From: an uncultured Gemmatimonadales bacterium | GTDB lineage: Bacteria > Gemmatimonadota > Gemmatimonadetes > Gemmatimonadales > GWC2-71-9 | Direction: 5' to 3' | Assembly (NCBI GenBank): GCA_963841505.1 | Contig: CAWJCZ010000008.1 | Span: 519,175 to 583,174, forward strand | DNA length: 64,000 nt | Shown: positions 1,411 to 63,783 of the stretch, in pieces | Numbering within the stretch: position 1 is the stretch's first letter | Layout: every line of letters begins with the position of its first letter | Notes under the pieces: generated by a model | Seen by the model: only the letters and a program-made list of their open reading frames with translations | Databases searched by the model: none | Told to the model about the DNA's origin: nothing | Position numbers and translations under genes: made by a program

Positions 1411-2221
1411 CGGCCGCGGGAAGCTCGGCCTTGTGATCGTCTCGATCATCCTGGTGCTGGCGGTGGCCGCGCCGGTCGTCGCGCCGGTCAATCCTGACAC
1501 GCAACGCGACGTGGTCGCCACCCGGTTCCTCGCGCCGATGACGACCGACGCTCACGCGGTCTTCCACCCGCTGGGGACCGACCGGCTGGGGCGGGATGTG
1601 TGGTCCCGGCTGGTGTACGGCGCCCGGATCTCGCTCGCGGTGGGCGGACTTGCCATGGCGCTTTCGCTGGTCATCGGCATCGGCGTCGGCGCGGTCGCCG
1701 CGGCCGGCGGCGCGGTGACCCGCAGTGCGCTGCTGGGACTCACCGACTTCGCGCTGGGTCTTCCCCGCGTGGTGCTGCTCCTTCTGCTCGCGGCGCTCTG
1801 GCAGCCGAGCGCGGTGCTTGTCATCGTGGTCCTCGGGGTCACCGGCTGGATGCCGGTGGCCCGGCTGGTGGACGCGGAGGTGCGGGCCCAGCTGGCGCGC
1901 CCCTATGCGGAGGCGGCCAGCGCTCTGGGAGCGCGACGGACCCGGCTTCTCCTCCGCCACGCCCTGCCGAACGCGCTGGCGCCGGTCATCGCCCTCGCGA
2001 CGCTGGGCGTCGGCAATGCAATCACCCTGGAAGCGGGGCTCTCGTTTCTGGGGTTAGGGGTGCAGCCTCCCACCGCCTCGTGGGGCACCATGATCGCGAG
2101 CGGGCGCGACACCGTGGTGAACGCGCCGTGGGTCGGACTCGCCCCGGGAATCGCGCTGGTGCTGGTGGTGGTGGGGTGTACCCTGCTGGCCGATTCGATC
2201 GAGGAGCGAAGGACCGGCTAG
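1400..2221 (+). CDS. ABC transporter permease, DppC/OppC-like
   Basis: 273-aa ORF with the OppC-type N-terminal region (PLGTDRLGRDVWSRLVYGARISL) and an EAA-like loop. It overlaps the upstream permease by 11 nt. No ATPase gene follows. Confidence 0.9.
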   Translation: MRLDGRGKLGLVIVSIILVLAVAAPVVAPVNPDTQRDVVATRFLAPMTTDAHAVFHPLGTDRLGRDVWSRLVYGARISLAVGGLAMALSLVIGIGVGAVAAAGGAVTRSALLGLTDFALGLPRVVLLLLLAALWQPSAVLVIVVLGVTGWMPVARLVDAEVRAQLARPYAEAASALGARRTRLLLRHALPNALAPVIALATLGVGNAITLEAGLSFLGLGVQPPTASWGTMIASGRDTVVNAPWVGLAPGIALVLVVVGCTLLADSIEERRTG

Positions 2222-4710
2222 AACCAGGTGCGGACTCCGAAGGAAACCGTGCGGCCTGGAAGCACGGTCGCGTTGTCGGGCTCGCCGGTCTGGTAGTTGA
2301 GCAGGTTGTCTCCCGACAGGGTGAGGCCGAGGCTGCGGGTCAGGGTGACGGCAACGCTGGCGCGGAGCCGGGTGACGCCGGGGTACTCTTTCCAGAACTC
2401 CCGCAGATTCCAGCCGACGTAGTCCTGGGTGGGACGATTGGTGGTCGCGAACGCCTGGGCCAGCGCGATGCGATCGTAGCTGATCCAGTGGTAGGCCCGA
2501 TACGCCGTGACCGCGGCGTTCCATCGCGCCGCGGAGTAGGACCCGATGACGCTCAGAGTCTGCTGGGGCACTTCCAGCATGCGATTCCCGGCGCGAAGGT
2601 CGCCGGTATAACCCTGCGCCACCTTCCGGACCCGGCTGTCCACCTGGGAGTACGCCCCGGTGAGCCCGAATCCACCGGAGTGCAGGGTGCCCTGAAGCTC
2701 CCATCCCCGATTGGTGATCTCTCCCACGTTCTGAAGCTCGGAGCCGAGCCGGCCGGTGGGCGGACCATCCGGGCGGGGACCCGCGTTCCTCGCGAGCAGT
2801 ACCCGCTGAATGAGCCCGGAGGCGACCTGATCGAACCGGGTGATCTGGAAGCTCGCGGCGCGGCCGATCACCAGATCAACGCCGGCTTCCACTCCCGACT
2901 GTTCCTCCGGCTTCAGGGCCCGGCTGGCTTCGTCGCTGAGGATGCCGTCCCACAGGGTCTGCCGGGCCGGAGCATCGGGCCAGCGGATGCCCTTGCCGTA
3001 GGCGCCGCGCAGCTTGACGCCGACGATCCCGTAATTCCTGGTCCAGGCGAGCCCGGCCATGGGAAGGGTGGCCCAGCGCTCGGTGCTGGTTGCGCCTTCA
3101 TCGCGCTCCAGTCGCACTCCGCCGTTGAAGTGCAGTCCCCCGAACAGCGCGGCGGTGAACTGGGTGGTGAACCCGCTGTTACCGCGCCAGCGGGTGATCT
3201 CCTCGTCGGGGTCGCCGGCTGCGTTCGGCATGATTTCGTAGGGCATGGCGCGCTGCCGGAGCACCGACTGCTCGGCGGAAAATGTCAGGTCGGCGAGCCG
3301 GCGCTCATTGCCCAGCTTGACGACGGTGCTGGCGCGGAGGGTCGCGCGGCTCGCGGACCCTTGCGCACTCGCCAGGGAACCGGCGCCGGTGAGCGGGATG
3401 GGAGTGTGGGGATCGGGGACCCCGCTCAGGCTGTAGCCATCGAGCCCGGCGGTGAAGGTGTGCTGCCAGCGTTCACCCGGAAACACCTTGAGGGTGGCGC
3501 CGGCGGTGTACTCGGCCAGCGATTCGACCCCGGCAAGCGGCTGGGCCGGGACGCTGCTGGTGTCGGAGGCCCGCCAGGGCGCGAGCGTGCGGGTTATGAC
3601 CGGGCTTTCGCCGGTCCCGGCCCGCATCCCGAAGAACCGCAGCGTGCCGGTGAGCAGGCTGGCCTCCCCGACCCGGCGTCCGACCGCGGTGGCGAGGAGC
3701 CGCCGGGAGGACGCGTCGGCAAAGTAGGCGCCGGTCGCGCCGGCGTCGACATCGAGCGATGCCGATTGCAGGTTGGAGCCGGTGCGGAACCTGGCGGCAT
3801 AGGACTGGTCCACCGCAGGGCTCGAGGTGTACTGGCTTCCGGCCAGGCCGATCCCGGCGTCGAAGCGGGCCCGGAGGGAGCTCTCTCCGGTGTCGTATCG
3901 GGAGATGATGTTGGCCACGCCGCTGATGGCGTCGGCGCCATAGAGGGCGGCCCCCTGGGGGCCCCGGATCAGCTCGATGCGGTCGATCGCGCTCGACTGG
4001 ATCCTGGTGAAGAGCAGCGGATTCGCAAGCTGGATCCCGTCGAGATACACCTTGGGGTAGCTCGCTCCGAAGGAGCTGGCGCCCCGGATACTTCCGTACT
4101 GCGACAGCGCGCTGACCGGCGATTGTTCCCACAGCCATAACCCGGGGACCTGGCCGTCCATGGCGGAGGAGAGGGTGGTGGCCCCCCGCTGTTCCAGGGC
4201 CCGTCCGTCGAGCACGTCGAGGGCGATCGGCAGCCCGCTCTGGCTGGCTCCGGCCGGAGAGCCGGTCACCACGATGCGTTCGAGCTCGACCGGCGGGGAT
4301 GGTGGGGTGGTGGCGACCTCCCGGGCGACCGGCGCCAGGACCACGTGGTCGGCGGCCAGGGGCACCAAGCGGAGGGGCAGATCGCCTAACACGCTGGTCA
4401 GGGCATCGCCCAGGGTCACCGCGTCGAACCGGAGGCAGACCCGGCGGTCGAGGGGAACCGCTTCGCCGCTATAGGACAGCCGGATCCGCACCTGCGCGGC
4501 GATCCGGTCGAGGGCCTCGCGCAGGGACACCTCGCGGGCGTGCAGCGAGAGCGTTTTTCCGAGCGGGCCGGTCCACTCCCGTCCGGAAAGCGAGGCGGTG
4601 AGATCGGGACAGGAAGCCGGCGGGGTCCAGGCCAAGGCTCGCGCCGACGACCCGGTCCATCCCCAGACCAGGACGAGCGCCACCGGGAGCGGCCGGAACC
4701 TCCATCTCAT
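2218..4710 (-). CDS. TonB-dependent receptor/transducer with N-terminal STN (secretin/TonB short N-terminal) signalling domain, FecA-like
   Basis: 830-aa ORF. It has a signal peptide, an STN-like block (SLREALDRIAAQVRIRLSYSGEAV...FDAVTLGDALTSVL), a plug (RIVVTGS...) and a beta-barrel ending FGVRTWF. An ATGA start/stop overlap joins it to the fecR-like gene. Confidence 0.9.
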   Translation of the reverse strand: MRWRFRPLPVALVLVWGWTGSSARALAWTPPASCPDLTASLSGREWTGPLGKTLSLHAREVSLREALDRIAAQVRIRLSYSGEAVPLDRRVCLRFDAVTLGDALTSVLGDLPLRLVPLAADHVVLAPVAREVATTPPSPPVELERIVVTGSPAGASQSGLPIALDVLDGRALEQRGATTLSSAMDGQVPGLWLWEQSPVSALSQYGSIRGASSFGASYPKVYLDGIQLANPLLFTRIQSSAIDRIELIRGPQGAALYGADAISGVANIISRYDTGESSLRARFDAGIGLAGSQYTSSPAVDQSYAARFRTGSNLQSASLDVDAGATGAYFADASSRRLLATAVGRRVGEASLLTGTLRFFGMRAGTGESPVITRTLAPWRASDTSSVPAQPLAGVESLAEYTAGATLKVFPGERWQHTFTAGLDGYSLSGVPDPHTPIPLTGAGSLASAQGSASRATLRASTVVKLGNERRLADLTFSAEQSVLRQRAMPYEIMPNAAGDPDEEITRWRGNSGFTTQFTAALFGGLHFNGGVRLERDEGATSTERWATLPMAGLAWTRNYGIVGVKLRGAYGKGIRWPDAPARQTLWDGILSDEASRALKPEEQSGVEAGVDLVIGRAASFQITRFDQVASGLIQRVLLARNAGPRPDGPPTGRLGSELQNVGEITNRGWELQGTLHSGGFGLTGAYSQVDSRVRKVAQGYTGDLRAGNRMLEVPQQTLSVIGSYSAARWNAAVTAYRAYHWISYDRIALAQAFATTNRPTQDYVGWNLREFWKEYPGVTRLRASVAVTLTRSLGLTLSGDNLLNYQTGEPDNATVLPGRTVSFGVRTWF

Positions 4711-5714
4711 CGATTAGGGGGATGCCGGGCAGGCGGAGCGGGTCGCACCACGGCCGTGTCTCCTTTTCGTTCGATCGAAGCACCGAGGGCGAGCCGGAGC
4801 ACTTCGAGGACCTGGTCGCGCGATTCCCTGGAGAAGCGCGCCGAAACGTGCCGGCCGACCAGGCTGGAATCGGCGAGGACGAGCTCGAGACCAAACCAGC
4901 GATGCAGATCTTCCCGAACCCGGCTCATCGGCGCGTTGTCGAAGATCAGCTGGCCGGTGAGCCAGGCCAGATCGGCTTCGTTGCGCTGCCCGGGGACCGG
5001 AGTGGCCTGCCGGGCGCCCAGGGTTCCCACTTCACCCGGCTTGAGGGTGAGGGTTCGCCGGGTCCGGCGCACGGTATCCTGCAACTCGACCGAGCCGGAC
5101 TCCACCATCACCCGGACCTCCTCGCTGCCGGTGTGAACCGTGAACCGGGTCCCGAGGTCGACGATTTCGGCCGCTCCGGCTCGGACCACGAACCGGTGGG
5201 TCGCATCGTGCGGGACGTCGAACATGGCCTGGCCCTGGAGGGTGACCACCCGATCGGGGAGGCCATAACCCGCGATGACGTCGAGCCGGCTGCCGGGGCC
5301 GAGCACCGCGGTGGTGCCGTCGGCGAGACGAATGGAGTCGGTCTGTCCCACCCCGGTGGTGAAGCTGGTCGGGTCCTGGTGGGGAGGAGCGGTGCGGACC
5401 ACCCGCCAGATCAGGGTGGCGCCGGCGACGAGCACGAGGGCGGCGGCAAGCCGTCCCCAGGTGAAGGCGCGCTGGCGGGAGGGGAGGTCAATGACCCTGG
5501 CTTCGCCGAACCGGGCCTTGACCCGCTGCAGGGCGGCCTCGACATCGACGGCGGGATCGGCTTCGGTGCCCCGCTCGAGCGAGGCCAGGAACGGGCCAAG
5601 GGATGGATCGGTCTCGGCCCAGTCGCGGACCTGCGCCTTCTCCTCGGCAGAGGCCTCCCCGGCCGCGTGGCGTCCCAGGACGATCCAGTCGTTTTCGGTG
5701 GTTGGCTGCCTCAT
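4707..5714 (-). CDS. FecR-family anti-sigma factor / transmembrane sensor
   Basis: 335-aa ORF. It has an N-terminal anti-sigma region (AAGEASAEEKAQVRDWAETDP), a single TM segment (LAAALVLVAGATLIW) and a FecR periplasmic domain. It is translationally coupled to the TonB transducer. Confidence 0.85.
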   Translation of the reverse strand: MRQPTTENDWIVLGRHAAGEASAEEKAQVRDWAETDPSLGPFLASLERGTEADPAVDVEAALQRVKARFGEARVIDLPSRQRAFTWGRLAAALVLVAGATLIWRVVRTAPPHQDPTSFTTGVGQTDSIRLADGTTAVLGPGSRLDVIAGYGLPDRVVTLQGQAMFDVPHDATHRFVVRAGAAEIVDLGTRFTVHTGSEEVRVMVESGSVELQDTVRRTRRTLTLKPGEVGTLGARQATPVPGQRNEADLAWLTGQLIFDNAPMSRVREDLHRWFGLELVLADSSLVGRHVSARFSRESRDQVLEVLRLALGASIERKGDTAVVRPAPPARHPPNR

Positions 5715-5791
5715 GTGCAGATGACACCCCTCCCACGTATCACCCTATATTCGAGCGACCCCAATCCCAAGCCCTTCCACGAGCGTCCCGG

Positions 5792-14084: not shown

Positions 14085-15377
14085 CTACATAGTAAACCCT
14101 GACTTGGACTGTGGCACCGCCGGGCTCGTGCCGGCCGCCTCGCCGGCTCCGCGGGGGATTGCGAAGACGGCGATGGCAGCCAGCGCCGTGTAGACGGCCA
14201 TCATCAGGAACAGGGGCCGGTAGCTCCCGAAGACATCGAACAGCGCCCCGTTCATCGGATCGCCGATCCCGCCTCCGAGTGCGATCGACAGCAGGAAGAG
14301 CGCCGACAGCACCCCGCGACGCTCCCGGGGGATCGGCTCCACGAAGAGCGGATAGGCGTTCACGGTCGGGAAGGTCCATGCTGCCGCCGTCAGGGCAAGC
14401 AGCGGAGCCGCCTGCGCCATGCTGCTCACCCGATCGAGCGCGACCAGGCACCCCGCCATCACGCCGAACCCGGCGAGCATGGCGTTGCGCCGTCCGAATC
14501 GCATGCCGATGAACCCGGCCGGCAGCGCCCCGATCACCCCGCCGACCGCCCACGCCATGAACCCGATGGTGACGTCCTCGGGTCGCACGCCGAAACGCTC
14601 GGTGCCATGCAGCGCGAACCAGGTGGTGAAGGTCTGGAAGGTCAACTGGACCAGGAGAGCGGCCAGGAACATCGGCCGGATCCCCGGCATCGCGCCCCGC
14701 ATCGCGCTCTGGACCGCCTCCCAGAGAGACCGGTAGCTCGCCTCGACGGCGCTCCCGTGTGGCGGGGGTTCGCGGAGACCAAGGCCAAGTCCGGCGGCGA
14801 TCAGCAGCACGGTCGCTGCGGCGATCAGGAATGCGCGCTCCATCCCGAGCACCCGGCCAAGCATCAGGAAGACGATGGCCCCGACACACATCTGGAAGGT
14901 GACCGAGCCGGTGGCGAGCGAGCGAAACCGCGAGGGGACCGCGTCCGCGATGACCGCCTGGAACGGAGAACGCTGGACGTTGATCCCGGTGTAGAGCACC
15001 ACGATCGCGGCGATCACGCCCACGATCCCGAATCGGGCCGACCAGGGAAAGAGCGCCATCCCGATCGCCGAGAGCAGCAACGCGCCGACGATCATCGGGA
15101 GCCGGCCGCGGCCACTCACTCCGGCCCGGTCGGACGCGGCGCCAGCCCACGGCACCAGAAGGAGCAGGAGCAGGTTGTCGATCGCCATCACCGCGCCGAT
15201 CGCGGTGCGATGGTCGCCCAGGGTTTCCCGGACCAGGGGGGGAACAAAGGTGCTCAAGAGCGGCCCGGTCACCCCGGCGAACAGACCGCCCAGGCCGACG
15301 CACAGGCAGATGCCGTAGGGCGTCCGCGCCGCCGTCCGCCCGGCGTCAGGACCAACCGTATCGGGTTGGGGGGTCAC
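14085..15377 (-). CDS. MFS transporter
   Basis: 430-aa ORF with about 12 predicted TM helices. The loop motif GAASDRAGVSGRGRLP lies between TM2 and TM3, as is typical of MFS transporters. Confidence 0.85.
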   Translation of the reverse strand: MTPQPDTVGPDAGRTAARTPYGICLCVGLGGLFAGVTGPLLSTFVPPLVRETLGDHRTAIGAVMAIDNLLLLLLVPWAGAASDRAGVSGRGRLPMIVGALLLSAIGMALFPWSARFGIVGVIAAIVVLYTGINVQRSPFQAVIADAVPSRFRSLATGSVTFQMCVGAIVFLMLGRVLGMERAFLIAAATVLLIAAGLGLGLREPPPHGSAVEASYRSLWEAVQSAMRGAMPGIRPMFLAALLVQLTFQTFTTWFALHGTERFGVRPEDVTIGFMAWAVGGVIGALPAGFIGMRFGRRNAMLAGFGVMAGCLVALDRVSSMAQAAPLLALTAAAWTFPTVNAYPLFVEPIPRERRGVLSALFLLSIALGGGIGDPMNGALFDVFGSYRPLFLMMAVYTALAAIAVFAIPRGAGEAAGTSPAVPQSKSGFTM

Positions 15378-15430
15378 GTCCCCATATTACGTGAAGGTTG
15401 CTCCCCACACCACCGGACGAGGCGGCGGCG

Positions 15431-16030
15431 ATGGACCCGATGTTTCTTCCGGATGTCGAAGCGAATCCGCAGGGCGATTCGCCCTATGCGAGCCTGATCG
15501 CCCAGGCCCGGGCCGCCGGTCGGGAGTACCCGCAGATCTGGCACCTGTTCGCGTTCAAGCCGCACGCCACGACGCACCTCGCCCATTTCACCCAGGAAAT
15601 CCTTCGCGGCGAGGCGCCGCTCAGTCCGGGATTTCGCGAGCTGATCGCGGCGCGAACCAGCGGCCGGAACGGGTGCCCGTTCTGACTGAAGTCTCACGCC
15701 GCGGTCGCGGCGGTGCTGTTGGGAAGCGAGGAGCTGGTCCGCGGGGTCCTGGAGGATCTCGACAGCTCCGGCCTGAGTGACGCCGAGAAGGCGCTGCTGC
15801 GTTTCCTCGACCGGGTGAACGACGACTCGCCCCGCATCACCGGGGCCGACATCGAGCCGCTCCATGCAGCGGGGTGGACCGACGAGCAGATCTGGTATGC
15901 CGTGACGGTATGCGCCCTGTTCAACTTCTACAACCGGTGGATCGACGCGACCGGCGTCCATGCCCTCTCCGACGAAGCCCATCGTGAGGGCGGGAAGCGA
16001 AGCGCGGCGGGCGGGTACGCCCGGAAGTAG
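15431..16030 (+). CDS. AhpD/carboxymuconolactone-decarboxylase-family peroxidase-related protein with in-frame TGA (probable selenocysteine) at 15683-15685
   Basis: Track ORFs 15398..15685 and 15713..16030 are in the same frame. The joined sequence is ...ELIAARTSGRNGCPF-TGA-LKSHAAVAAVLLG..., so the TGA occupies the second Cys of the C-x-x-C-x-x-x-H redox motif. A SECIS-like hairpin follows. The ATG 15431 start is preferred over TTG 15398. Confidence 0.7.
15697..15712 (+). promoter_or_regulatory. Candidate bacterial SECIS hairpin (6-bp GC stem, GGUC apical loop) 11 nt downstream of the TGA
   Basis: CGCCGC-GGTC-GCGGCG read directly. The spacer (11 nt) and loop sequence match the E. coli fdhF SECIS minihelix (GGUC loop). 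Confidence 0.6.
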
Positions 16031-18634: not shown

Positions 18635-18692
18635 TCTACCTCCGTGAAATGGTGTGCGCGTTAATTGGGAGACGCATCGGATGGCTCGCCGC

Positions 18693-19520
18693 TCACGCCA
18701 GGGCGCGGGTCAGGGCGCGGCGGGTGAGGACCCGGGCCAGGTGGGCGCGATACTCCGCGGAGCCGCTCAGGTCCGTCATCGGCTCGATCCCGTCGGCGGC
18801 GTGTTCGGCAGCGTTCCCGATCGCTCTGACCGATCGCTCCCGGCCCAGAGCGGATTCGACCGCCGCGGCCCGATACGGCTTCGCCGCGACACCGGTGACG
18901 CCGACCCGAACCCGGTTTCCATCGATCACAACCGCGACACCGCAGAGCGCGAATCCGCTGGCTTTCTGGGCGAGCTTCTCGTAGCCGACCGTTCTTGCCG
19001 TCCTGGGGACCCGGATGGCGGAGAGGATCTCACCGGGCTGGATCGCGGTCTGGAACAGGTCCACGAAGAAATCTCGGGCCGGAACCGATCGGCGCCCACT
19101 CTTCCCGGTGACCTCGAGCTCTGCCTCGAGGGCGAGCATCGCCGCGGGCCAATCGGCCGCGGGGTCGGCGTGGGCCAGGCTTCCCCCGATGGTTCCCCGA
19201 TTCCGGACCTGCACGTCGCCGATCTGCACCGCTACCTGGTGGAGGAGCGGACACGCTCGCGCCAGCAAGTCATTCGATTCAATATCGTAGTGGGTCGCCA
19301 TCGCGCCGATCGCGATACGATCGCCATCGGCACGAATCGCGCGGAGCTCTGCGATGCGACCGATGTCCACCAGCGCATTCGGCTGGGAAAGACCGAGCTT
19401 CATGGCGGGAAGGAGGCTGTGCCCGCCTGCCAGTACCCGGGCCTCCTTGAGCTCGACGAGAAGCCCGGTCGCTTCGTCGAGGGTTCCCGGCCGGTGATAC
19501 GCGAATTCAGCGGGGATCAT
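18693..19520 (-). CDS. Molybdenum hydroxylase FAD-binding (medium, CoxM-like) subunit
   Basis: Start is MIPAEFAYHRP (ATG 19520, ATGA overlap with the large subunit). It shows FAD_binding_5 motifs: LAGGHSLLPAMKL, RNRGTIGGSLAHADP. Confidence 0.88.
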   Translation of the reverse strand: MIPAEFAYHRPGTLDEATGLLVELKEARVLAGGHSLLPAMKLGLSQPNALVDIGRIAELRAIRADGDRIAIGAMATHYDIESNDLLARACPLLHQVAVQIGDVQVRNRGTIGGSLAHADPAADWPAAMLALEAELEVTGKSGRRSVPARDFFVDLFQTAIQPGEILSAIRVPRTARTVGYEKLAQKASGFALCGVAVVIDGNRVRVGVTGVAAKPYRAAAVESALGRERSVRAIGNAAEHAADGIEPMTDLSGSAEYRAHLARVLTRRALTRALA

Positions 19521-21922
19521 CGGCGCACCTTCTTTCGCGCGGCCGGTTTGGGGGTGGCGGGCTTGCGGGCCGGCGGAGCCGGCTCGGTCACCAGGGGCCG
19601 CGGTGCCGCGGCGGGGTCGCTGATCGCCCGCCACACCTTCTCTGGAGTGAACGGCATGTCGAGGTGCCGGACCCCGAGCGGCGCCAGCGCATCGATCACC
19701 GCGTTCGCGATGGCCGGCGTGGACCCGATGGTTCCGGCCTCGCCCACCCCTTTGACCCCCAGCGGGTTGGCGGGCGTCGGGGTGATGGTGCTGCCCAGCA
19801 CATACTCCGGGATGTCGGTGGTCCTCGGCATGGCGTAGTCCATGAATTCGCCGGTGAGCAGCTGGCCATTGTCGTCATAGACCGTCTGCTCGAACAGCGC
19901 CTGTCCGATCGAATGGGCAATCCCTCCCTGCACCTGGCCTTCGATGAGCAGGGGGTTCACCTGGTTCCCGCAATCGTCCACCGCGATGTACTTGACGATG
20001 CGGACCTCTCCGGTGTCGCGGTCGATCTCGACCACGGCGATGTGGGTGCCGAACGGAAACGTGGCGCTGGGTGGCTCGAAGAAGCTGGAGGCCTCGAGGC
20101 CCGGCTCGAAATTGGGCGGAAGGTTCTTGGCGATGTACGCTTCGCCCGCGAGCTGACCCCAGCCCAGCGCCTGCCGGCGCTTGCCCTTGACGAAGAACTG
20201 TCCCGCGTCGAACTGGACGTCCCTGGGTTTTGCTTTGAGGAGCGCCGCAGCCAGGATCCTGGCCTTGGCGACGATCTTGTCGATGCACATCACGATCGCG
20301 CTTCCGCCCAGCGCGGTGGCGCGGCTTCCGTAGGTGTCGCGCCCGTAGTGCGCAATCGCGGTGTCGCCACGATACACTACGATGTCTTCGATCGGGACAC
20401 CCAGCCGGTCGGCGGCGATCTGGGCGAAGCTGGTCTCCTGGCCCTGCCCGTGCGGGGTGGCGCCGGTGATCACCGTCACCTTGCCGGAGATCTCCATCCG
20501 GACGCAGCCCCACTCCCAGCCGCCCGCCGACATCGTCTTGGACGGGCCTAACGCGCAGATTTCCACGTAGGTCGAGACCCCGATCCCGTAGAGCCGGCCG
20601 GCCCGCCGGGCCGCTTCGCGTTCGCGCACCAGCGCGTCCCACCGGCCCAGCTCCAGCGCCTTCTTGAGCGCCGCCTGGTAGTTCCCGGTGTCATAGGTCG
20701 CCCCCGTCGCCGTGGTGAAGGGGAATTCGCTCGGCTTGGGAAAATTCTTCCGGCGGACCTCCAGAGGGTCGAGGCCCAGCTCGGTCGCAATGATGCTCAT
20801 GAGGCGTTCGATCGCGTAGGCCGCCTCGGGGCGGCCCGCGCCGCGGTACGCGTCGGTCGCCATCTTGTGGGTGTGGACCGCCGTCACGTCCATCTGCACC
20901 GCGCGGAGCTTGTAGCACCCGCAGATCATCAGGGTGGTCAGCCCGGGGATCGCGGGGGTCAGGAGCTGGTTGTAGGCGCCCAGGTCGGCCAGGGTGTGGC
21001 CCTTGAGCGCGAGCACCGTCCCGTCCCGCTTCACCGCCACTTCATAGTCGCCGATCTGATCGCGACCGTGGATCGTGACCGCGGCATTCTCGCTCCGGGT
21101 CTCGATCCATTTGACCGGCGCGTTGAGCCGGATGGCGAGGTGGCTCACCAGGATTTCTTCAGGATAGAGATTCAGCTTGGATCCGAACCCGCCGCCGACC
21201 TCGGGCGCCACGATGCGGAGCTTGTTCTCGGGAACGTTCACCAGGGCGGGCAGCAGGGTACGCACCAGGTGCGGCACCTGGGTCGAGGTCCACAGGGTGA
21301 GCGACTCTTCGCCCGGGTGCCACGACGCGACGCACCCCCGGGGCTCCATGGCCATGGGGGTGAGGCGCTGATGGCGCATGCGGACCTTGATGATCCGGTC
21401 TGCCCGGGCGAACTCGGCCGCCACGTCGCCGTTCACCATGGTGGACCGGAACGCGATGTTGGTGCCCAGGTCGGGATGGGTGAGGGGCGCGCCGAGGAGG
21501 GCCTGCTCCGGGTCCACCACCACGGGAAGCGGATCGTACTCCACGTCGATCAGGTCGAGGGCGGTGCGCGCGGCGGCGGGATTGCTGGCCACCACTACCG
21601 CGACCGGATGGCCCACGAAGTACACCCGGTCACCGGCCAGCACGGTGTGGGTGGGCGAGGTCTGGCCTGGCTGGGGTGCGGCGCAGGGGACCGCGCCGAC
21701 CTGGCCGGTGAGGTCCGACCCGGTGAGCACCGCGACGACACCGGGATGGGCCCGGGCCTGGTCGGCGTGAATCGCCCTAACCCGCGCGTGCGCGTGGGGG
21801 CTCCGCAGGAAGGCGGCGTGCAGCAGGCCGGGCAGGCGCAGGTCGTCGACATAGGTGGCGATGCCCTTGATCAGGCGGGGATCTTCCACCCGCTTGAGTG
21901 GGCGGCCCACGTAGCGGTTCAT
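19517..21922 (-). CDS. Molybdopterin-binding large subunit of the aldehyde oxidase/xanthine dehydrogenase family, form-II CoxL-like
   Basis: The real start is MNRYVGRPLKRVEDPRLIKG (ATG 21922) inside the 1842-aa track ORF. The active-site loop is AYRGAGR (form II, not the VAYRCSFR of true CO dehydrogenase). It has a Lys/Pro-rich C-terminal tail. Confidence 0.9.
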   Translation of the reverse strand: MNRYVGRPLKRVEDPRLIKGIATYVDDLRLPGLLHAAFLRSPHAHARVRAIHADQARAHPGVVAVLTGSDLTGQVGAVPCAAPQPGQTSPTHTVLAGDRVYFVGHPVAVVVASNPAAARTALDLIDVEYDPLPVVVDPEQALLGAPLTHPDLGTNIAFRSTMVNGDVAAEFARADRIIKVRMRHQRLTPMAMEPRGCVASWHPGEESLTLWTSTQVPHLVRTLLPALVNVPENKLRIVAPEVGGGFGSKLNLYPEEILVSHLAIRLNAPVKWIETRSENAAVTIHGRDQIGDYEVAVKRDGTVLALKGHTLADLGAYNQLLTPAIPGLTTLMICGCYKLRAVQMDVTAVHTHKMATDAYRGAGRPEAAYAIERLMSIIATELGLDPLEVRRKNFPKPSEFPFTTATGATYDTGNYQAALKKALELGRWDALVREREAARRAGRLYGIGVSTYVEICALGPSKTMSAGGWEWGCVRMEISGKVTVITGATPHGQGQETSFAQIAADRLGVPIEDIVVYRGDTAIAHYGRDTYGSRATALGGSAIVMCIDKIVAKARILAAALLKAKPRDVQFDAGQFFVKGKRRQALGWGQLAGEAYIAKNLPPNFEPGLEASSFFEPPSATFPFGTHIAVVEIDRDTGEVRIVKYIAVDDCGNQVNPLLIEGQVQGGIAHSIGQALFEQTVYDDNGQLLTGEFMDYAMPRTTDIPEYVLGSTITPTPANPLGVKGVGEAGTIGSTPAIANAVIDALAPLGVRHLDMPFTPEKVWRAISDPAAAPRPLVTEPAPPARKPATPKPAARKKVRR

Positions 21923-22398
21923 CGGGCACCTTTCCCGCCGGCCTTCGCGGCGTGCTCGATGGCGTCGATGATGTGGGAGTAGCCGGTGCAGCGGCACAGG
22001 TTGCCTTCCAGGCCGTCGCGAATCTGGTCCCGGCTCGGGTGGGGATTCCGCTCGAGGAGCTGGACCCCGGCAAGGATCATCCCCGGGGTGCAGTACCCGC
22101 ATTGCAGCCCGTGACATTCCCAGAAGCCCTGCTGGACGGGATGGAGGGTTCCGTTCCGGGCCAGACCCTCGATGGTGCGCACCTCGCTTCCATCGGCCTG
22201 GACCGCGAGCACGGTGCAGGATTTCACCGCGTTGCCGTCGAGCAGCACCGTGCAGGCGCCGCACACCGACGTCTCGCACCCGATGTGGGTCCCGGTGAGG
22301 CCGCAGGAGTCGCGGAGGAAATGGGCGAGCAGCAGTCTGGGTTCGACCTCCTGCTCCTGCATGGCGCCGTTGATCCGGATCCGGACGGGTGTTTTCAT
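21919..22398 (-). CDS. [2Fe-2S]-binding small subunit (CoxS-like)
   Basis: Start is MKTPVRIRINGA (ATG 22398). The Cys clusters are CETSVCGACTV and CGYCTPG...CRCTGY. An ATGA overlap joins it to the large subunit. Confidence 0.9.
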   Translation of the reverse strand: MKTPVRIRINGAMQEQEVEPRLLLAHFLRDSCGLTGTHIGCETSVCGACTVLLDGNAVKSCTVLAVQADGSEVRTIEGLARNGTLHPVQQGFWECHGLQCGYCTPGMILAGVQLLERNPHPSRDQIRDGLEGNLCRCTGYSHIIDAIEHAAKAGGKGAR

Positions 22399-22510
22399 GC
22401 GGAGTGTTCTCCCTGCTTCGAGCCGTGTTGTCGTCCGTGCAGAAGATACCTCTCGATCCCGCGGCATGCTGGATGTTGCCGCGGGCTCTCCGTCTGCGCA
22501 GACTTCCGGG

Positions 22511-24124
22511 ATGGGGAGACTCTGTTCTGCCGTCCTGATTCTGCTGGCGACCTCGCTTCCCCCTGCGGTCGAACAACGCACCATGGGGACCGGGCCGCCG
22601 GCACGCCTCATCGTGAGCTTCGACGGTCTGGGTTCCGGCTTTGAAGGCCCCCAGGGAACCGCCACCTTCCGTAACCCGTCCGACAATACCATCGCGGTCG
22701 GACCCGACCGGGTGTTTCAGATCGTGAATACCAGGATGGCGATCTTCACCCGGACTGGGAGACCGCTCTATGGGCCGGTCCCCACCAATACGCTGTTCCG
22801 GGGATTCGGCGGTGCATGCGCGACCTGGAACAACGGTGATGCGGTGGTCCGCTACGATCAGCTCGCCGACCGGTGGCTGGTGGTGATGCCGGTGTTCCGG
22901 CGCGGCGAGCCGCGACCCGACGTTGCTCCCGCCGGAAGCACGGGCAGTCCGCCGGCGCTGAGCACCGCGGGAAACCCGGATCAGCCCGGCCTGCCGGTCC
23001 CGCTTTTCGTGCCGGACTCGGGCGGGCCGGCCCCCGCTCCCGCTCGGGCAAGTACGCCGCCGCCGACCGGCCCCTACTCGATGTGTTACGCCGTGAGTGA
23101 GACCAGCGATCCGATGGGGCGATGGTATCGATACGAGTTTCTCCGGCCGCTCTTTCCCGACTATCCCCGGCCCGCGGTCTGGCCCGACGGTTACTACGTC
23201 CCCACCAGCACCAGCGACGATCGCATCTCCCCCACGGTCGCGACCCAGAAGCACGCCTGCGTGGCGGAACGGGCCCGCATGCTGGCCGGACAACCCGCTC
23301 GGGAAATCTGTCTGATCATCGAGAATGTGAACTTCCTGAACAACGCCGATCTGGACGGCAAGGCCCTCCCGCCCCGTGGGGCAGCTAACCCGATGATGGC
23401 CGCCGGCGGGCGGCAGCTCGACAGTCTTCTCGCGGATAGCGTGATCAATGTGTGGCAGTTTCGGGTGGACTGGGCCGACCCGGCGAACACGGCGATCACC
23501 GGTCCCACCGCGATTGCCGTCGCACCGTACCACTACCTCTGCGGCGGCCAGCTCACCAAGTGCGTGCCGCAGCGCGGGACGGAACAACGTCTCGATGCCC
23601 AGGGCGACAAGCTGATGGCGCGGCTGGTCTATCGCCGGATCGGAAACCGCGAATCCATCCTTGCCACGCACTCGATCAACACCTCGAGCGGTGGGGGCGG
23701 CGTGCGCTGGTACGAATTCCGGATCGGCAGAAATCGCCAGGTGTCCCTCTATCAGGAGGGGACGTTCCTCTCGGACGGCGACTTCCGGTGGATGGCGAGC
23801 GGTGCCATCGATCGGTTCGGCAATATCGGCTTCGGGTATTCCTTCGGCGCGGCCGTGCAGTTTCCGGGGCAGCGATTCTCGGGACGCCGCCCCGGTGATC
23901 CACCGGGACAGCTGACCCTCGCGGAAACCGTTCTCGCCGAAGGCGAAGCGGCACAGGTCGGGACTCCGCCCGAATGGCGTAACCTGCGCTGGCAGGACTA
24001 CACCCAGACCGCGGTCGATCCGAACGACGATTGTACCATCTGGTACGTCGGCGATTATCTCAAGCAGGGAGCAACCTCCTACTCGAGCCGGATCGGCGCG
24101 TTCCGGATGCCGGGGTGCCGTTGA
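22511..24124 (+). CDS. Hypothetical secreted protein
   Basis: This is the coding-like part of track ORF 22172..24124. It has a signal-like N-terminus, MGRLCSAVLILLATSLPPAV (an alternative start is ATG 22466). I recognised no domain. Confidence 0.55.
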   Translation: MGRLCSAVLILLATSLPPAVEQRTMGTGPPARLIVSFDGLGSGFEGPQGTATFRNPSDNTIAVGPDRVFQIVNTRMAIFTRTGRPLYGPVPTNTLFRGFGGACATWNNGDAVVRYDQLADRWLVVMPVFRRGEPRPDVAPAGSTGSPPALSTAGNPDQPGLPVPLFVPDSGGPAPAPARASTPPPTGPYSMCYAVSETSDPMGRWYRYEFLRPLFPDYPRPAVWPDGYYVPTSTSDDRISPTVATQKHACVAERARMLAGQPAREICLIIENVNFLNNADLDGKALPPRGAANPMMAAGGRQLDSLLADSVINVWQFRVDWADPANTAITGPTAIAVAPYHYLCGGQLTKCVPQRGTEQRLDAQGDKLMARLVYRRIGNRESILATHSINTSSGGGGVRWYEFRIGRNRQVSLYQEGTFLSDGDFRWMASGAIDRFGNIGFGYSFGAAVQFPGQRFSGRRPGDPPGQLTLAETVLAEGEAAQVGTPPEWRNLRWQDYTQTAVDPNDDCTIWYVGDYLKQGATSYSSRIGAFRMPGCR

Positions 24125-24169
24125 GCTGACCTCTCGAAGTATGTTGCGACCACATCCACTGAGGACGGA

Positions 24170-25246
24170 GTGCCGGTGGGATTCCTGGATCTGATTTTTC
24201 TGGAGAACAGCGTTCGCGCCTGGGCAATCGCCGGCGGCGTGGCGGTCGGTATCTATCTGATCCTCACCGTGGTGCTCGCGGTCGTCCGGAACCGGCTGAG
24301 CAAACTCGCGGCACGCACCAGGACCCAGTGGGACGACATCGTTGTCGGCGCCCTCGGCAGGACCAAGAGCCTCTTCCTCCTGGTCCTCGCGATTGCCGCG
24401 GGGTCGTCGTTGCTCGACCTGCCGGGCCGGGTCCGCGCCGCGATCGAAGCGGTTACGGTGCTCTCCCTGGTCTTTCAAGGCGGCATCTGGGTCTCCGCCG
24501 CATTCACCACCTGGCTCTCGGCCTACACCCAGCGGGAGATGGAGACCGACCGGCGCGCCGCCACGACCTTGAGCGCCCTTGGCTTCGTGGTCAAGCTGGT
24601 GCTCTGGTCGATCATCGTGCTGCTGGCGCTGGACAACCTGGGCGTCAACATCTCCGCGCTGGTTGCCGGATTGGGGATTGGTGGAGTCGCGGTGGCGCTC
24701 GCGACCCAGAACATCCTGGGAGACTTGTTCGCGTCGCTCTCCATTCTGGTGGACAAGCCGTTCGTCCTCGGCGACTTCATCATCGTGGACGACAAGCTCG
24801 GATCGGTGGAGAAGATCGGACTCAAGACCACCCGGGTCCGAAGCCTGTGGGGGGAGCAGGTCGTGTTCTCCAACAACGACCTCCTCAAGAGCCGGCTTCG
24901 CAACATGGGCCGGATGCTGGAGCGGCGGGTGCAGTTCAGCCTGGGGGTGATCTATCAGACGCCCCGGGCCAAGCTCCAGCGCATTCCCGGGATCATCCGC
25001 GACGCGATCCAGGCCCAGCAGAAGATCCGGTTCGACCGGGCCCATCTCAAGGAATTCGGCGACTTCGCCATCAGCTTCGAAGTCGTCTTCTTCGTCCTGT
25101 CACCGGATTACAACACGTATATGGATATCCAGCAGGCGATCTACTTGAGGATTCACGAGGTCTTCGAGACCGAAGGGATCGAGTTTGCCTATCCTACTCA
25201 GACCCTTTTTCTCTCCCGCTCCCGGGAAAGCGGCGAAGCCCCCTGA
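24170..25246 (+). CDS. Mechanosensitive ion channel, MscS family
   Basis: 358-aa ORF with GAGGA upstream of the GTG start and several TM helices. The MscS core reads LGIGGVAVALATQNILGDLFASLSILVDKPFVLGDFI...G.VEKIGLKTTRVRS. Confidence 0.88.
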   Translation: MPVGFLDLIFLENSVRAWAIAGGVAVGIYLILTVVLAVVRNRLSKLAARTRTQWDDIVVGALGRTKSLFLLVLAIAAGSSLLDLPGRVRAAIEAVTVLSLVFQGGIWVSAAFTTWLSAYTQREMETDRRAATTLSALGFVVKLVLWSIIVLLALDNLGVNISALVAGLGIGGVAVALATQNILGDLFASLSILVDKPFVLGDFIIVDDKLGSVEKIGLKTTRVRSLWGEQVVFSNNDLLKSRLRNMGRMLERRVQFSLGVIYQTPRAKLQRIPGIIRDAIQAQQKIRFDRAHLKEFGDFAISFEVVFFVLSPDYNTYMDIQQAIYLRIHEVFETEGIEFAYPTQTLFLSRSRESGEAP

Positions 25247-31098: not shown

Positions 31099-31229
31099 GA
31101 GGTCTCCTCGGCTGGAAGGCGGACGGACTGGACAAGTATACGACCGCGGCGAGGGGGGCAATACCTACCGGGACCGGTCCGGTCGGCCAGGTCCTGTATT
31201 TCCTCTCCGAACCTGATAGTGTTGGCTCC

Positions 31230-32993
31230 ATGAGAATCCGAGGGGTTGGGGCGATCCTGGCGATGCTGGCGATGGCAGTACCCGTCGAGGCTCAGCAGCC
31301 GGGGGCGAGCGGCGACTGGACCATGCCGGGACGGGATTACACCGCCACCCGCTTCAGTCCGCTCAACCAGATCACCCCCACCAACGTCGCGACCCTCAAG
31401 CCGGTCTGGAACTTCTCGACCGGGGTGTTGCGCGGCCACGAGGGCCAGCCGCTGGTGGTCAACAACACGATGTATGTCGTCACGCCCTACCCGAACGTGC
31501 TCTACGCGTTCGACCTGACCAAGGCCGACTATCCGCTCAAGTGGAAATATCGGCCAGCGGTGGACGCCAACGCTCTCGGCATTGCGTGTTGCGACGCGAT
31601 CAACCGAGGCGCGTTCTACGCCGGCGGCAAGATCATCTACAACACGCTCGACGGGCACACCATCGCCGTGGATGCCGCGACCGGTCGCGAAGTCTGGAAC
31701 GTGAAGGTCGCCGACATCACCGATGGAGAAACGACCCCGATGGCGCCATTCGTCGTCGGCAACCGGGTCATGGTCGGCCCTTCCGGCGGCGAGTTCGGTA
31801 TCCACGGGTGGGTGAAGGCGCTGGATCTTGCGACCGGCAAGCTCGCCTGGACCGGGTACAACGTCGGCCCCGACGCCGACATGCTGATTCGTCCCGGAGC
31901 GGTTCAAGCCGTTCTACGACAAAGGCCCCAACCTGGGGCTCACCACCTGGCACACCGAGGCGTGGAAGACCGCCGGCGCGCCGGTCTGGGGCTGGTTCTC
32001 CTATGACCCGTCCCTCGATCTGGTGTACTTCGGGGTCGGAAATCCGGGTCCCTACAATCCCGAGCAGCGCCCGGGCGACAACAAATGGACCAACAGCGTG
32101 CTGGCGCGTAGGCCTCGGGATGGCTCCCTCGTCTGGGCCTACCAGTTCACCCCGCACGACAACTGGGACTTCGACTCCAACGCCGGGATGATGCTCGCCG
32201 ATCTCACCATCAAGGGTCGGCTCCCGAAAGGTGCTGGTGCACTTCGACAAGAACGGCTTTGCCTACACGCTGGATCGCGCCACCGGTGAGGTGCTCGTCG
32301 CGGAACCCTACGTGTTCCTCAACTGGGCCAAACGAGTGGATCTCACGACCGGCCGGCCGGTGCTCGACTCGACCAAGCTCACCGGCGAGAGCAAGGGGAA
32401 CGTCACCTACATCTGTCCCAGCCTCGAGGGAGGAACCAGCCCGGCGTCCCCTTCGGCGTTTTCCCCTCGCACCGGTTGGTTCTACGTCTCGACCGTGAAC
32501 CTCTGCATGGACTATCACGCCGAGCCAAAGGCGCGGATCCGGGGCACCCCGTTCATCGGGGCGAGCACGCCGTATGTCGCGGGACCGGGCGGCAACATGG
32601 GTGCATTCATCGCCTGGGACGCGGCGACGGGAAAGCGCATCTGGGAGATCAAGGAGCGCTATCCGGTATGGAGCGGAGTGGTCGTGACCGGTGGAGACGT
32701 GGTGTTCTACGGGACCCTCGATGGCTGGTTCAAGGCCGCCAACGCCCGGACCGGCGAGGTGCTCTGGAAATTCAAGGTCGGCTCGGGGGTGGTGGGAGCG
32801 CCGATCACTTACCGCGGGCCCGGATGGGAAGCAGTACGTCGCGGTTTACGCCGGAATAGGCGGGGACTGGGCCCTGCTCTCGGGGGATGTGCGGTCCGAC
32901 GACCCTAACGATGTGCGGGATCCCGCCAGTTTCATCAACGACCTGGGTCGCTACACCAGCTCCGGCGGCATGGTGTGGATATTCGCATTGTGA
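31230..32993 (+). pseudogene. xoxF: PQQ-dependent methanol/alcohol dehydrogenase, XoxF-type (lanthanide signature D-x-D), interrupted by three +1 frameshifts
   Basis: Four consecutive track ORFs in frames 0,1,2,0 (31230.., 32023.., 32231.., 32691..) join into one quinoprotein. Joined features are FSTGVLRGHEGQPLVV, vicinal ACCD, GGEFGIHGWV, FKPFYDKG, PHDNWDFDS, HFDKNGFAYTLDR and PITYRGPDGKQYVAVYAG. Extra G residues lie at about 31896, 32230 and 32822. Confidence 0.8.
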
Positions 32994-33445
32994 GGCTCGG
33001 CTTTCTCGGCGGCCTGCTGCTCCTCTACAGCTCGGGCTGCGGGCGCCCTAACCCGGCATCCCGGGTCGGAGAGGCGACGGCGGCCGCGCCGGCGGTCCGG
33101 TTCGATCGCGCGGTGCTCGCCGGCGGCGCCATGCCTCCATCCGACACGCTTCGGAATCCCTTCACGGGCGACACCACCTCCGTTACCGAAGGCGGGAAGC
33201 TCTGGAGCTCGATGAACTGCGACGGTTGCCACGGCGGCGGGGAGGGGTGGGTCGGGCCCAGCCTGAGCGACGGCCGATGGCGGTACGGTGGCTCGGACGC
33301 CGAAGTCTACCAGACCATCTTCTACGGCCGCCCCAACGGAATGCCGGCGTTCGGAGGGCTGCTCTCGCAGGATATCATCTGGAAGCTGGTGAGCTACATC
33401 CGCTCCCTTCCGGTGCCGAGAGCGGTGCCGACCCAGTCCTGGTGA
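32975..33445 (+). CDS. Mono-haem c-type cytochrome lipoprotein (XoxG-like position)
   Basis: 156-aa ORF with lipobox YSSGC, haem motif CDGCH and a distal Met region GMPAF. It overlaps the end of the xoxF-type gene; the start may be GTG 32990. Confidence 0.8.
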   Translation: MDIRIVRLGFLGGLLLLYSSGCGRPNPASRVGEATAAAPAVRFDRAVLAGGAMPPSDTLRNPFTGDTTSVTEGGKLWSSMNCDGCHGGGEGWVGPSLSDGRWRYGGSDAEVYQTIFYGRPNGMPAFGGLLSQDIIWKLVSYIRSLPVPRAVPTQSW

Positions 33446-36465: not shown

Positions 36466-36506
36466 GGCAAACCCCGGTGAAGGGAAGGAGATGAATTATA
36501 CCGGTT

Positions 36507-37173: not shown

Positions 37174-38965
37174 CTACGACTTCAGGATCCAGAAGCGCGC
37201 CTGATAGCGCCACGCGGTGTAGGCGATCCGGCCCCCATCCGGCGACACCGCCGGCTGGGTCTTGTCGGTGGAATCCCGGGTGAGTTGCGCCGGAACATTG
37301 CCGCTCGACCGGACCCGGAACAGCTGGAGCCGTCCCTGATCGTCGGGGGCGGGATAGACCAGCCACGCCCCACCCGGACCCACCCCGAATCCGTCGATCC
37401 GCTGAGGACTCTCGTACCGGTGAATCACCTGCGGCGTCCCGCCGGTACGCGCCACGCGGTAGAGCGTGTGTCCGGTCGGCGGATGGGTCGCCGAGAAGAC
37501 GATCGTGTCGCTGGAGCCGAGCCACTCGGCGTGGACTACCTCCTCGGACAAACCGGTGACCGGAACGGAACGCGCCGGGACGGTCACCCGACCGGTCTCC
37601 TGATCGACCCCCACGATCCATACCAGCGATCGGCGGCGCCCATTGATCACCGAATCGCCGTCGAACACGATCCACCGTCCGTCCGGCGACCACCGCGGCC
37701 ACCCCACCTCGGCGCCGCGGCCGAGGTTGCTGATGCGGGTTAACGGGCTATCTCGCTCGGCAGGACGGAGCCAGACGTCGTCCGAATTCTGCTGATGTGA
37801 GTGAAACGCGATCCAGCGCCGGTTGGGCGACCAGGTGATCCCCTGATCCTCCGACACGGACTGCTGGATGACTTGCTCCACTCGGGCAGCCGGCGCGTCA
37901 CCGTCCGCCGCGATGATCCCGACGTCTTGCGCGATGTCGGGGTAATGGAAATCGTCACGCACCCTGCGCCAGGTTCCGTAGGTGACGCCGAGACGGGTTC
38001 CGGTCGGGTCCCACGAAGGAGTCTCGGCTTGAAAAGCGGTGCGCTGCACGGCCGAGCCGCCTTCGGCCGGCATCACCAGCACTTCGGTTCCGTAGTCCTG
38101 ATCCTTGTAGAGGAGGGCGCCGTCCCGGCTCACCGACGGAGCGTAAGTATCCCTCGGCTCGGCGGCCATCTGGCGGCCAGCGTGCCGGCTCAGGTCCCAG
38201 GCCCAAAGCCGAACAAAGCCGCTGTCGTTGGCGAAAGCGACGTACAGCTCGCGGCCGTCGGGCGACGGGGCGACGGGACCGTAGGCCTCGCGTTCCTCGA
38301 GTCCGACAGGCACGGCATCCCCGCAGGGGAGCGTAACCCGCTGTCGACCGGCTTCCATTGCCAGGCAACCGATCCGGCCATCCGGCATCCAGAAGGGGTA
38401 GCCCACCCGGATGGTGATTGACCGAGTCGAGATTGCTCGTCCGCTCGCATCGAATTCCCAGAGTCGGGATCCCGGCGGCTGCAACTCAACTCCCGCGCCT
38501 TTGCGTCCATCCAGCGACCAGCTCAATTCACGGAGTAAGGCGGGATCCACCGAGTCGCCGGCGCTGGTCACGAGCCGAGTGTCCCTCGGGCCAGAGGGGT
38601 TGCCGGGTGCCGCGGTTCAGGTCGTAGGACCACCAGAGTACCGCGCTGTCGGGCTGGCCCAGCACCAGCGTCGTATCGTCTCGCCAGACGAGGTGCTGGA
38701 TCCGTCCGTCTCCCACCGGCAGGGAGCGCTCGGTGCCGGCCCGGAGGTCATGGATTACGAATTGGTTGGGGATGACGGTCGCCAGCCGGCGCCCGTCGGG
38801 GGAGAGCACCCCGATCGGATCGCGATACCCCACCGGCCCGGCCTGATGTATCGTCGCGACGACGGACGCGATCGGCGAGCCTGGTGCTGCCGGGCAACCG
38901 GCGAGAAGGCCGAACCAGGTGATCGCGAGGAGAAATGCCGGGTTATGGAGCGATGGCCGTCTCAT
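37174..38965 (-). pseudogene. TolB/PD40-like beta-propeller lipoprotein, reading frame broken once (38572-38618)
   Basis: The N-terminus with lipobox (MRRPSLHNPAFLLAITWFGLLAGC...) is in ORF 38528..38965. The body, with PD40-type repeats (SPDGRELY, SRDGALLY, SPNRRWIAF, SPDGRWIVF, SPDGGRIAY), is in ORF 37174..38571. Confidence 0.7.
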
Positions 38966-38970
38966 CGATG

Positions 38971-39026
38971 GTCCGCCTGTCCGCCGTCGCGCCTGTCCGC
39001 CTGTCCGCCTGTCCGCCTGTCCGCCT
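38971..39026. repeat. Tandem octamer array, 7 units (GTCCGCCT x5, GTCCGCCG, one degenerate TCGCGCCT)
   Basis: Read directly. It fills almost the whole 59-nt spacer between the kinase stop (39025-39027) and the ATG of the PD40 lipoprotein gene (38963-38965). Confidence 0.95.
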
Positions 39027-41730: not shown

Positions 41731-41800
41731 GTGGTGTCTTGGGTTTGGATGGTTGAAGATGGGGGTGGCGGCGCCGTGCGGCTAGGGGCGCTAGGCCGCC

Positions 41801-47102: not shown

Positions 47103-47150
47103 GGGCCGCCCCTGTTATCCGGCCACCCCGAGATCCTGTTTCCTATATTC

Positions 47151-47882: not shown

Positions 47883-47930
47883 CCCCGGTCCGGTGGCCCC
47901 TTCGGCGGCTTCCCCGTAACTTTCCGGTTC

Positions 47931-61630: not shown

Positions 61631-61638
61631 TTGCGCTC

Positions 61639-62629: not shown

Positions 62630-62648
62630 CGCGCCGGGAGTTTACCCT

Positions 62649-62683
62649 CCGTTACCCGCCCCATTGTAACGGGCGGGTAACGG
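62649..62683 (-). other. 13-bp intercistronic hairpin between pstS and pstC
   Basis: CCGTTACCCGCCC (62649-62661) pairs with GGGCGGGTAACGG (62671-62683) around a 9-nt loop. No U-tract follows on the sense strand. Confidence 0.6.
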
Positions 62684-62695
62684 ATGGGTAACAGG

Positions 62696-63775: not shown

Positions 63776-63783
63776 ACGGCTCC

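Follow-up and report, generated by a model that had tools for sequence, protein, structure and literature searches.

Examination of a 64,000-nucleotide stretch of the genome of an uncultured Gemmatimonadales bacterium (contig CAWJCZ010000008.1, positions 519,175 to 583,174 of the forward strand; hereafter the window, from whose first base all coordinates are counted) points to an AhpD-like gene that is very probably a real selenoprotein gene, with the in-frame UGA at its codon 85 decoded as selenocysteine (Sec) with the help of a conserved RNA hairpin. A preliminary description made from the window alone had termed it a probable selenoprotein; this reading is now supported by the conservation of the TGA, by homologues carrying Cys at the aligned position, and by a covarying hairpin that agrees with the published model of the bacterial selenocysteine insertion sequence (SECIS).

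The coding sequence of this AhpD-like "peroxidase-related enzyme" occupies positions 15431-16030 of the plus strand and consists of 199 codons followed by a TAG (16028-16030). Its likely start is the ATG at 15431, because homologues begin with M-[DKE]-P-M-F-L-P. The open reading frames (ORFs) 15398..15685 and 15713..16030 share one frame, the TGA at 15683-15685 and nine sense codons being all that lies between them; the joined product reads ...RNGCPF[TGA]LKSHAAVAAVLL..., and 114 sense codons separate the in-frame TGA from the terminal TAG. Translation thus bore out both the common frame claimed in the preliminary description and its placement of the TGA at the second Cys of a C-x-x-C-x-x-x-H motif, with the His four residues further on.

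Profile scores for the joined product, computed with U replaced by C, exceed the thresholds of three models of the AhpD/CMD superfamily: TIGR01926 "peroxidase-related enzyme" of NCBIfam (97 bits, the cutoff being 81.8, with the match spanning positions 29-172 of the 178 in the profile), the Pfam CMD domain PF02627 (38.2 against 23) and TIGR00778 (33.8 against 27.8). The AhpD/CMD-like, peroxidase-related identity originally suggested therefore stands, and the profile matches place the gene in the TIGR01926 AhpD-like (COG2128) family. Two related selenoprotein models of the AhpD superfamily that also have CxxU motifs, NF041238 "AhpD_rel_CFYUT" (37.3 bits against a 175-bit cutoff) and NF053654 "YciW-related (seleno)protein" (20.1 against 310 bits), scored far below their cutoffs, and hence the window gene is a member of neither. 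The closest proteins with solved structures are 2OYO, 2PFX and 2PRR (all "uncharacterized peroxidase-related proteins"), Mlr4105 (3C1L) and the AhpD 6K40; these match over about 150 residues at E = 1e-15 to 1e-12, share the motif region, and in every case carry a Cys aligned with the window TGA, where the window protein would have Sec. From this homology the window protein is predicted to adopt the all-helical AhpD fold.

The putative active site is likewise preserved. Glu70 (GAG, 15638..15640), Cys82 (TGC, 15674..15676), Sec85 (TGA, 15683..15685) and His89 (CAC, 15695..15697), all on the plus strand, reproduce exactly the spacing E-x11-C-x-x-C-x3-H, and an alignment shows all four to be invariant in the clade. 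In Mycobacterium tuberculosis AhpD (MtAhpD) and Pseudomonas aeruginosa PA0269 this signature constitutes a proton relay, formed by E118/C130/C133/H137 and E36/C48/C51/H55, respectively (PMC3141380). By this correspondence Glu70, 12 residues before Cys82 as in both of those proteins, and His89, four residues after Sec, would be the relay residues, and Cys82, which opens the CxxU motif and is equivalent to Cys130 of MtAhpD, would be the resolving Cys. The TGA itself takes the second redox position of a C-P-F-U motif, and the third base of the His89 codon doubles as the first base of the hairpin stem described below. On this analogy, the protein is predicted to be an AhpD-like thiol/selenol oxidoreductase.

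The distribution of the TGA indicates that it is not a stop. A protein search returned 2,050 homologues, and the more distant ones possess a Cys at the TGA position in the form CxFCxxxH, which is seen in about 92 of the 120 homologues listed. The closest of those listed, some 25 JGI proteins (64-73% identity, from contigs of about 1 kb), show a "W" at the Sec position. This Trp is a gene-calling artefact, because the underlying DNA of these records has an in-frame TGA there. The public JGI/IMG records with Trp at the Sec codon comprise related loci L001 and L002 and proteins P0001-P0023, P0027, P0030 and P0101; the gene caller had applied a TGA=Trp code to short contigs, which results in a systematic mis-annotation of selenoproteins.

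The best 160 further related loci, taken from scans of a metagenome collection and a GTDB genome collection, all have TGA at this position and none has a Cys codon. In total, TGA occupies the Sec codon in 162 of 162 scorable related loci with 65-84% protein identity. The nearest of these (80-84% identity) belong to Gemmatimonadota metagenome-assembled genomes, most of the remainder to Acidobacteriota (Bryobacterales, Solibacteraceae and Terriglobia), and the rest to other lineages. Past the TGA the frame stays open for 112-219 codons (median 114) in every locus, and the 15 residues that follow it are 85% identical to the window across the set. Two checks proposed in the preliminary description concerned these homologues: Cys-containing relatives, both the CxFCxxxH proteins and those in the PDB, do align across the TGA, and none was found that ends at this position or is split into two genes, the TGA and the open frame being kept in all 162.

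Immediately downstream of the TGA, an 11-nt spacer (15686..15696, plus strand) that starts with a C directly after the UGA leads into the candidate SECIS hairpin (15697..15712, plus strand), in which 15697-15702 pair perfectly with 15707-15712 to form a 6-bp stem around the loop GGUC (15703-15706). The stem, tetraloop and spacer are those recognized at the outset from the window alone, and RNAalifold applied to 149 distinct orthologues returns exactly the same stem. Counting of pairs showed standard pairing in 98.8% of cells, against only 28-83% in controls with a slid partner strand, and the observed covariation score was reached by none of 500 shuffles. Compensatory changes are seen at three pairs, each of them composed of synonymous third-codon positions: 15697/15712 (C-G to U-A), 15700/15709 (C-G to U-A) and 15703/15706 (G-C to A-U). 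At the first of these the His89 codon changes from CAC to CAT in eight loci, and a change from GCG to GCA at the pairing partner offsets it. Positions 15703 and 15706 (+20 and +23), at the margins of the loop, form G-C in 82 loci, whereas the other 80 have A-U and no locus is in a mixed state; on a neighbour-joining tree of the proteins some 16 independent switches between the two account for this pattern. G15704 and U15705 at the center never vary, and the distance from UGA to stem is exactly 11 nt in all loci. The putative SECIS is unusually compact, its apex amounting to an invariant G-U dinucleotide closed by a covarying pair (N1-G-U-N2).

Codon usage within the hairpin provides a further signature of constraint. 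The Val codon of the loop is GTC or GTT in 162 of 162 loci, with GTG making up 49% of the Val codons elsewhere in the same genes, and one hairpin Ala codon is GCA in 49% of the loci versus a background of 7%. Five distinct Cys-type genes coding for the same HAAVAA peptide served as a negative control; they use free codons (Val as GTG in four of the five), and no conserved hairpin was found in them. Because this codon lock is absent from Cys-type genes encoding the same peptide, the hairpin appears to be tied to the UGA. Covariation and constraint at synonymous sites together identify the hairpin as being under selection as RNA. The base after the TGA is also biased, being C in 106 loci, A in 41, G in 15 and U in none; the Leu codon following the UGA is CTN in 104 loci and never TTR, although TTR makes up about 33% at two other Leu positions in these genes. 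Stop-codon contexts in E. coli link the base after UGA to weak termination, and the avoidance of U fits selection for such a context.

The published consensus for bacterial SECIS elements (PMC13188914) calls for a loop of 3-9 nt on an upper stem of 4-16 bp, for a G within the first two bases of the loop, frequently with a G or U after it, and for a UGA-to-loop distance of 16-37 nt, with a minimum free energy of -7.5 kcal/mol or lower. The window hairpin lies within all four of the structural ranges (loop 4 nt, stem 6 bp, loop G, spacing 17 nt), its minimum free energy being -10.8 kcal/mol; 159 of 161 orthologue hairpins are likewise at or below -7.5 kcal/mol. The comparison with a bacterial SECIS model suggested in the preliminary description thus came out in favor of the hairpin, and the covariation at synonymous sites adds to it.

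Certain observations weigh against decoding as Sec. Searches of the 64-kb window and of roughly 1.6 Mb of sequence flanking the related loci recovered neither selA, selB and selD nor a gene for tRNA-Sec: Pfam scans of about 40 window ORFs revealed no SelA, SelB or SelD, tblastn with approximate E. coli SelA, SelB and SelD probes gave no matches in 1.65 Mb, and ARAGORN detected no tRNA in the window and, across all loci, ten ordinary tRNAs and no tRNA-Sec. Such an absence from window and flanks is no negative for the genome, since sel genes need not be linked to the genes that depend on them. As for the RNA, some stem positions are fixed by Ala codons, so that only three of the seven pairs are able to covary, and the 61-nt fold has z = +0.51, with 142 of 200 shuffles folding at least equally well. 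A scan of the whole window at gathering scores against all 4227 Rfam families produced no match, the hairpin included, and at E <= 10 the region 15600-15800 gave chance miRNA-like matches only and no SECIS family. Given how short and diverse the SECIS elements of bacteria are, this Rfam result carries little information. Perfect hairpins with a 6-bp stem and a 4-nt loop number 66 in the window, and six of its 1,416 TGA triplets have one 9-14 nt downstream; taken within the window alone, the hairpin is therefore within chance, and its significance comes entirely from the comparative data.

The TGA might instead be a genuine stop, produced by mutation of TGC or TGT in a pseudogene or by a sequencing or assembly error. 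A single base change would turn either Cys codon into TGA, and the nearby gene for a pyrroloquinoline quinone (PQQ) dehydrogenase-like protein (31101-32908) looks frame-shifted, so the assembly or genome may hold errors. However, the same TGA recurs in all 162 independent loci, drawn from different samples, assemblies and phyla, and in each of them the downstream frame is intact and strongly conserved as protein, while the accompanying hairpin is under selection. Sequence comparison therefore leaves an explanation by decay or error next to no chance, and it may be regarded as effectively refuted. There is as little prospect that two genes are present, one encoding an N-terminal protein of 84 residues that stops at the TGA, the other a C-terminal protein starting from the GTG at 15713. 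A mechanical ORF caller does give two ORFs, and two other same-frame TGA junctions in the window (at 47880 and 24122) are just neighbouring genes; but a split here would divide both the C-x-x-C-x3-H active site and a single Pfam/TIGRFAM domain, the Cys homologues are single proteins of about 200 residues, as are those with solved structures, and the nine codons that would fall between the two genes, which include those for KSHAAVAA, are among the most conserved of the protein.

Very unlikely, too, is a read-through in which the UGA specifies something other than Sec, be it through an opal suppressor inserting Cys or another residue, through near-cognate Trp insertion or through genome-wide reassignment. 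Opal suppressors resembling tRNA-Sec that insert Cys have been described, along with unusual allo-tRNAs of Acidobacteria (PMC5389517), no gene of the Sec machinery was found in the window or the flanks, and the JGI callers rendered the codon as Trp. Nevertheless, the selC* tRNAs of that study come from anaerobic Firmicutes, Thermodesulfobacteria, Nitrospirae and Proteobacteria, not from the phyla in which the window gene is found (PMC5389517). Furthermore, the position is that of the catalytic Cys of a redox motif, a classic site of Sec/Cys exchange, catalogues list the family as a CxxU selenoprotein (PMC1088965, PMC13188914), and the hairpin fits the model of a SECIS of the SelB type. Because TGA is the terminal stop of the orthologous gene itself in 44 of the 162 loci and also ends many Pfam-verified genes of the window, any recoding of UGA would be position-specific and not genome-wide. 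It is more improbable still that the hairpin serves a purpose unrelated to Sec, such as mRNA stability, ribosome pausing or binding of a regulatory protein, with its proximity to the TGA being incidental. G+C-rich hairpins are indeed common, as the number of such perfect hairpins in the window attests, and Rfam assigns no SECIS; but the codon lock and the covariation hold in all UGA orthologues and are absent from Cys-type genes with the same peptide, the 11-nt spacing is fixed throughout, and the invariant G-U apex is in line with the loop G of the bacterial model (PMC13188914).

Taking Sec decoding as the preferred reading, we propose that, as the ribosome arrives at the UGA, SelB with its GTP and Sec-tRNA(Sec) would be drawn to the hairpin that begins 11 nt further on, a 6-bp G+C stem topped by the invariant G-U and, on either side of it, the covarying bases of the G-C or A-U pair. 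The SelB complex would then outcompete release factor 2, and the non-U base after the UGA could assist by weakening termination. In the finished protein, by analogy with MtAhpD, Sec85, at the position of Cys133, may attack an oxidized partner, which could be a peroxide or else a disulfide or sulfenate of the peroxiredoxin type; the resulting adduct would be resolved by Cys82, giving a selenenylsulfide, with Glu70 and His89 acting as a proton relay.

The genomic context offers a possible clue to the function of the protein. On the minus strand, divergent from the selenoprotein gene and outside the recoding device, lies a gene for an MFS transporter (14085..15377; Pfam MFS_1, 1.4e-25). A divergent MFS neighbour with 74-78% identity occurs about 1.5 kb from the TGA in ten loci of the Gemmatimonadota type, and Cys-type homologues adjoin or overlap MFS_1 genes on the same strand. 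This physical link between AhpD-like and MFS genes recurs at loci L003-L010, L083-L085, L163, L165, L167 and L170. Such recurrent adjacency suggests a functional link and hints at a specific substrate. The neighbours downstream are an Amidohydro_2 gene and an amino-acid permease gene, and no ahpC was found near the selenoprotein gene in the window.

Other TGA codons of the window that resemble Sec candidates were rejected. The TGA at 47880-47882 terminates a gene for a rhomboid protease that is followed by deoC (pair 47088-48965, plus strand), and the TGA at 24122-24124 is the stop of a gene for an unknown 650-residue protein followed by an MscS channel gene (22115-25246, plus strand); in both pairs separate genes share one frame across a single TGA and so mimic selenoprotein candidates. 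A TGA at 20154 (plus strand) with a hairpin 9 nt downstream falls in the shadow frame of a minus-strand gene for a xanthine dehydrogenase/CoxL-type molybdopterin enzyme (about 19517-21900), recognized from its translation. The plus-strand shadow of the CoxL-type gene contains long ORFs with high G+C at third codon positions, including 18654-19838, which can mislead ORF-based scans.

Elsewhere in the window, the PQQ-dependent dehydrogenase-like gene appears to be broken into three overlapping, out-of-frame ORFs on the plus strand (31101-32006, 31888-32289 and 32192-32908), followed after a TAA by an ORF with a cytochrome c domain (32909-33445, plus strand) in frame with the last PQQ piece; the breaks in this region (31101-33445) could be frameshifts, signs of a pseudogene or assembly errors. 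Genes at 33802-36495, 37174-38616 and 39025-41781 on the minus strand encode three PD40-repeat proteins, the outer two being paralogous Ser/Thr protein kinases with a fusion to beta-propeller repeats of the PD40/WD40-like type. A phosphate-uptake cluster (58545-64000, minus strand) encodes PhoU, a permease and a PBP-like binding protein that runs off the window end, and its ABC ATPase ORFs 59228-60277 and 60040-60969 overlap. Finally, a TonB-dependent receptor gene adjoins a FecR-type anti-sigma gene at 2218-5744 (minus strand).

The window gene is a genuine member of a selenoprotein family that has been catalogued since 2005, and the general knowledge of selenoproteins is unchanged by it. AhpD-like CxxU proteins (COG2128, Pfam02627) were first reported from the Sargasso Sea selenoproteome with 27 sequences (PMC1088965); in the Global Ocean Sampling data "AhpD-like 1" was the fourth most abundant selenoprotein family with 299 sequences (PMC2398784). 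They also occur in sequenced genomes, for example that of Alkaliphilus (PMC1794560), and a 2026 review lists "AhpD-like protein, TIGR01926, CxxU" in its table (PMC13188914). The expectation in the preliminary description that Sec-containing AhpD-like proteins figure in selenoproteome surveys is thus correct, and the CxxU arrangement has itself been described (PMC1088965, PMC2398784, PMC13188914). The catalogued family shares with the window gene the same hidden Markov model family, Sec at the second CxxC position and a SECIS-like hairpin with a loop G just past the UGA. However, the earlier reports come mostly from marine metagenomes and a few genomes, whereas the window gene represents a C-P-F-U clade found in Gemmatimonadota and Acidobacteriota of soil and freshwater. 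Decoding of Sec in Acidobacteria has been on record since 2006 (PMC1794560), and our literature search for selenoproteins of Gemmatimonadota found no paper.

A few modest additions to the known picture follow from the present data. In the alignment of 162 loci a very small SECIS is strongly supported by covariation, which should be useful for SECIS models. The Sec form also appears dominant in a large soil clade that includes a phylum absent from the selenoproteome papers searched; it is conceivable, though we advance it only tentatively, that C-P-F-U is the standard form of the enzyme throughout a large clade of Gemmatimonadota and Acidobacteriota, most of them aerobes of soil and freshwater. 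If that is true and undescribed, the clade would offer a clean natural system in which to study how a minimal SECIS works and how soil bacteria depend on selenium. The source organism, by implication, would decode Sec and require selenium for at least one redox enzyme. In terms of annotation, the gene should be given as one 199-residue selenoprotein rather than as two ORFs, a pseudogene or a Trp protein. Current pipelines mis-handle such genes, in that an ORF caller using the standard code splits them at the TGA and JGI gives Trp; the recognition of the latter error is a further addition.

Among characterized proteins, MtAhpD and its structural analogue PA0269 display the same E-x11-C-x-x-C-x3-H signature on a two-helix motif (PMC3141380), and in MtAhpD the attack on AhpC is made by the second Cys, the exposed Cys133 (PMC6626918); it is this position that Sec would occupy in the window protein. 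Overall similarity of MtAhpD to the window protein is nevertheless very low, to the extent that phmmer does not retrieve it, and the residue just before the second redox residue is Phe in the window protein as opposed to His132 in MtAhpD and Tyr50 in PA0269. The setting differs as well, with the MFS transporter gene as the conserved neighbour of the window gene instead of ahpC.

On the RNA side, the closest parallel is the SECIS of E. coli fdhF, in which the TGA is followed after 11 nt by GGUUGCA-GGUC-UGCACC, an arrangement matched at 100% identity within fdhF in 5,419 of 5,426 E. coli genomes. The likeness to this element noted in the preliminary description, namely the 11-nt spacer, the GGUC loop and the 1-nt offset, holds against the fdhF sequence. 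Both hairpins have the same spacer, an apical GGUC tetraloop with a central G-U and an upper stem of similar size. The loop of the window hairpin lies 1 nt nearer to the UGA because the 5' arm is 7 nt in fdhF versus 6 nt in the window. That longer arm contains a bulged U, whereas the window stem pairs perfectly over its 6 bp, with no bulge. The lower stem of fdhF, moreover, includes the UGA, while RNAalifold indicates no conserved lower helix in the window clade, and half of the orthologues carry AGUU in place of GGUC. By analogy, then, the window hairpin would work like the fdhF element without being the same element.

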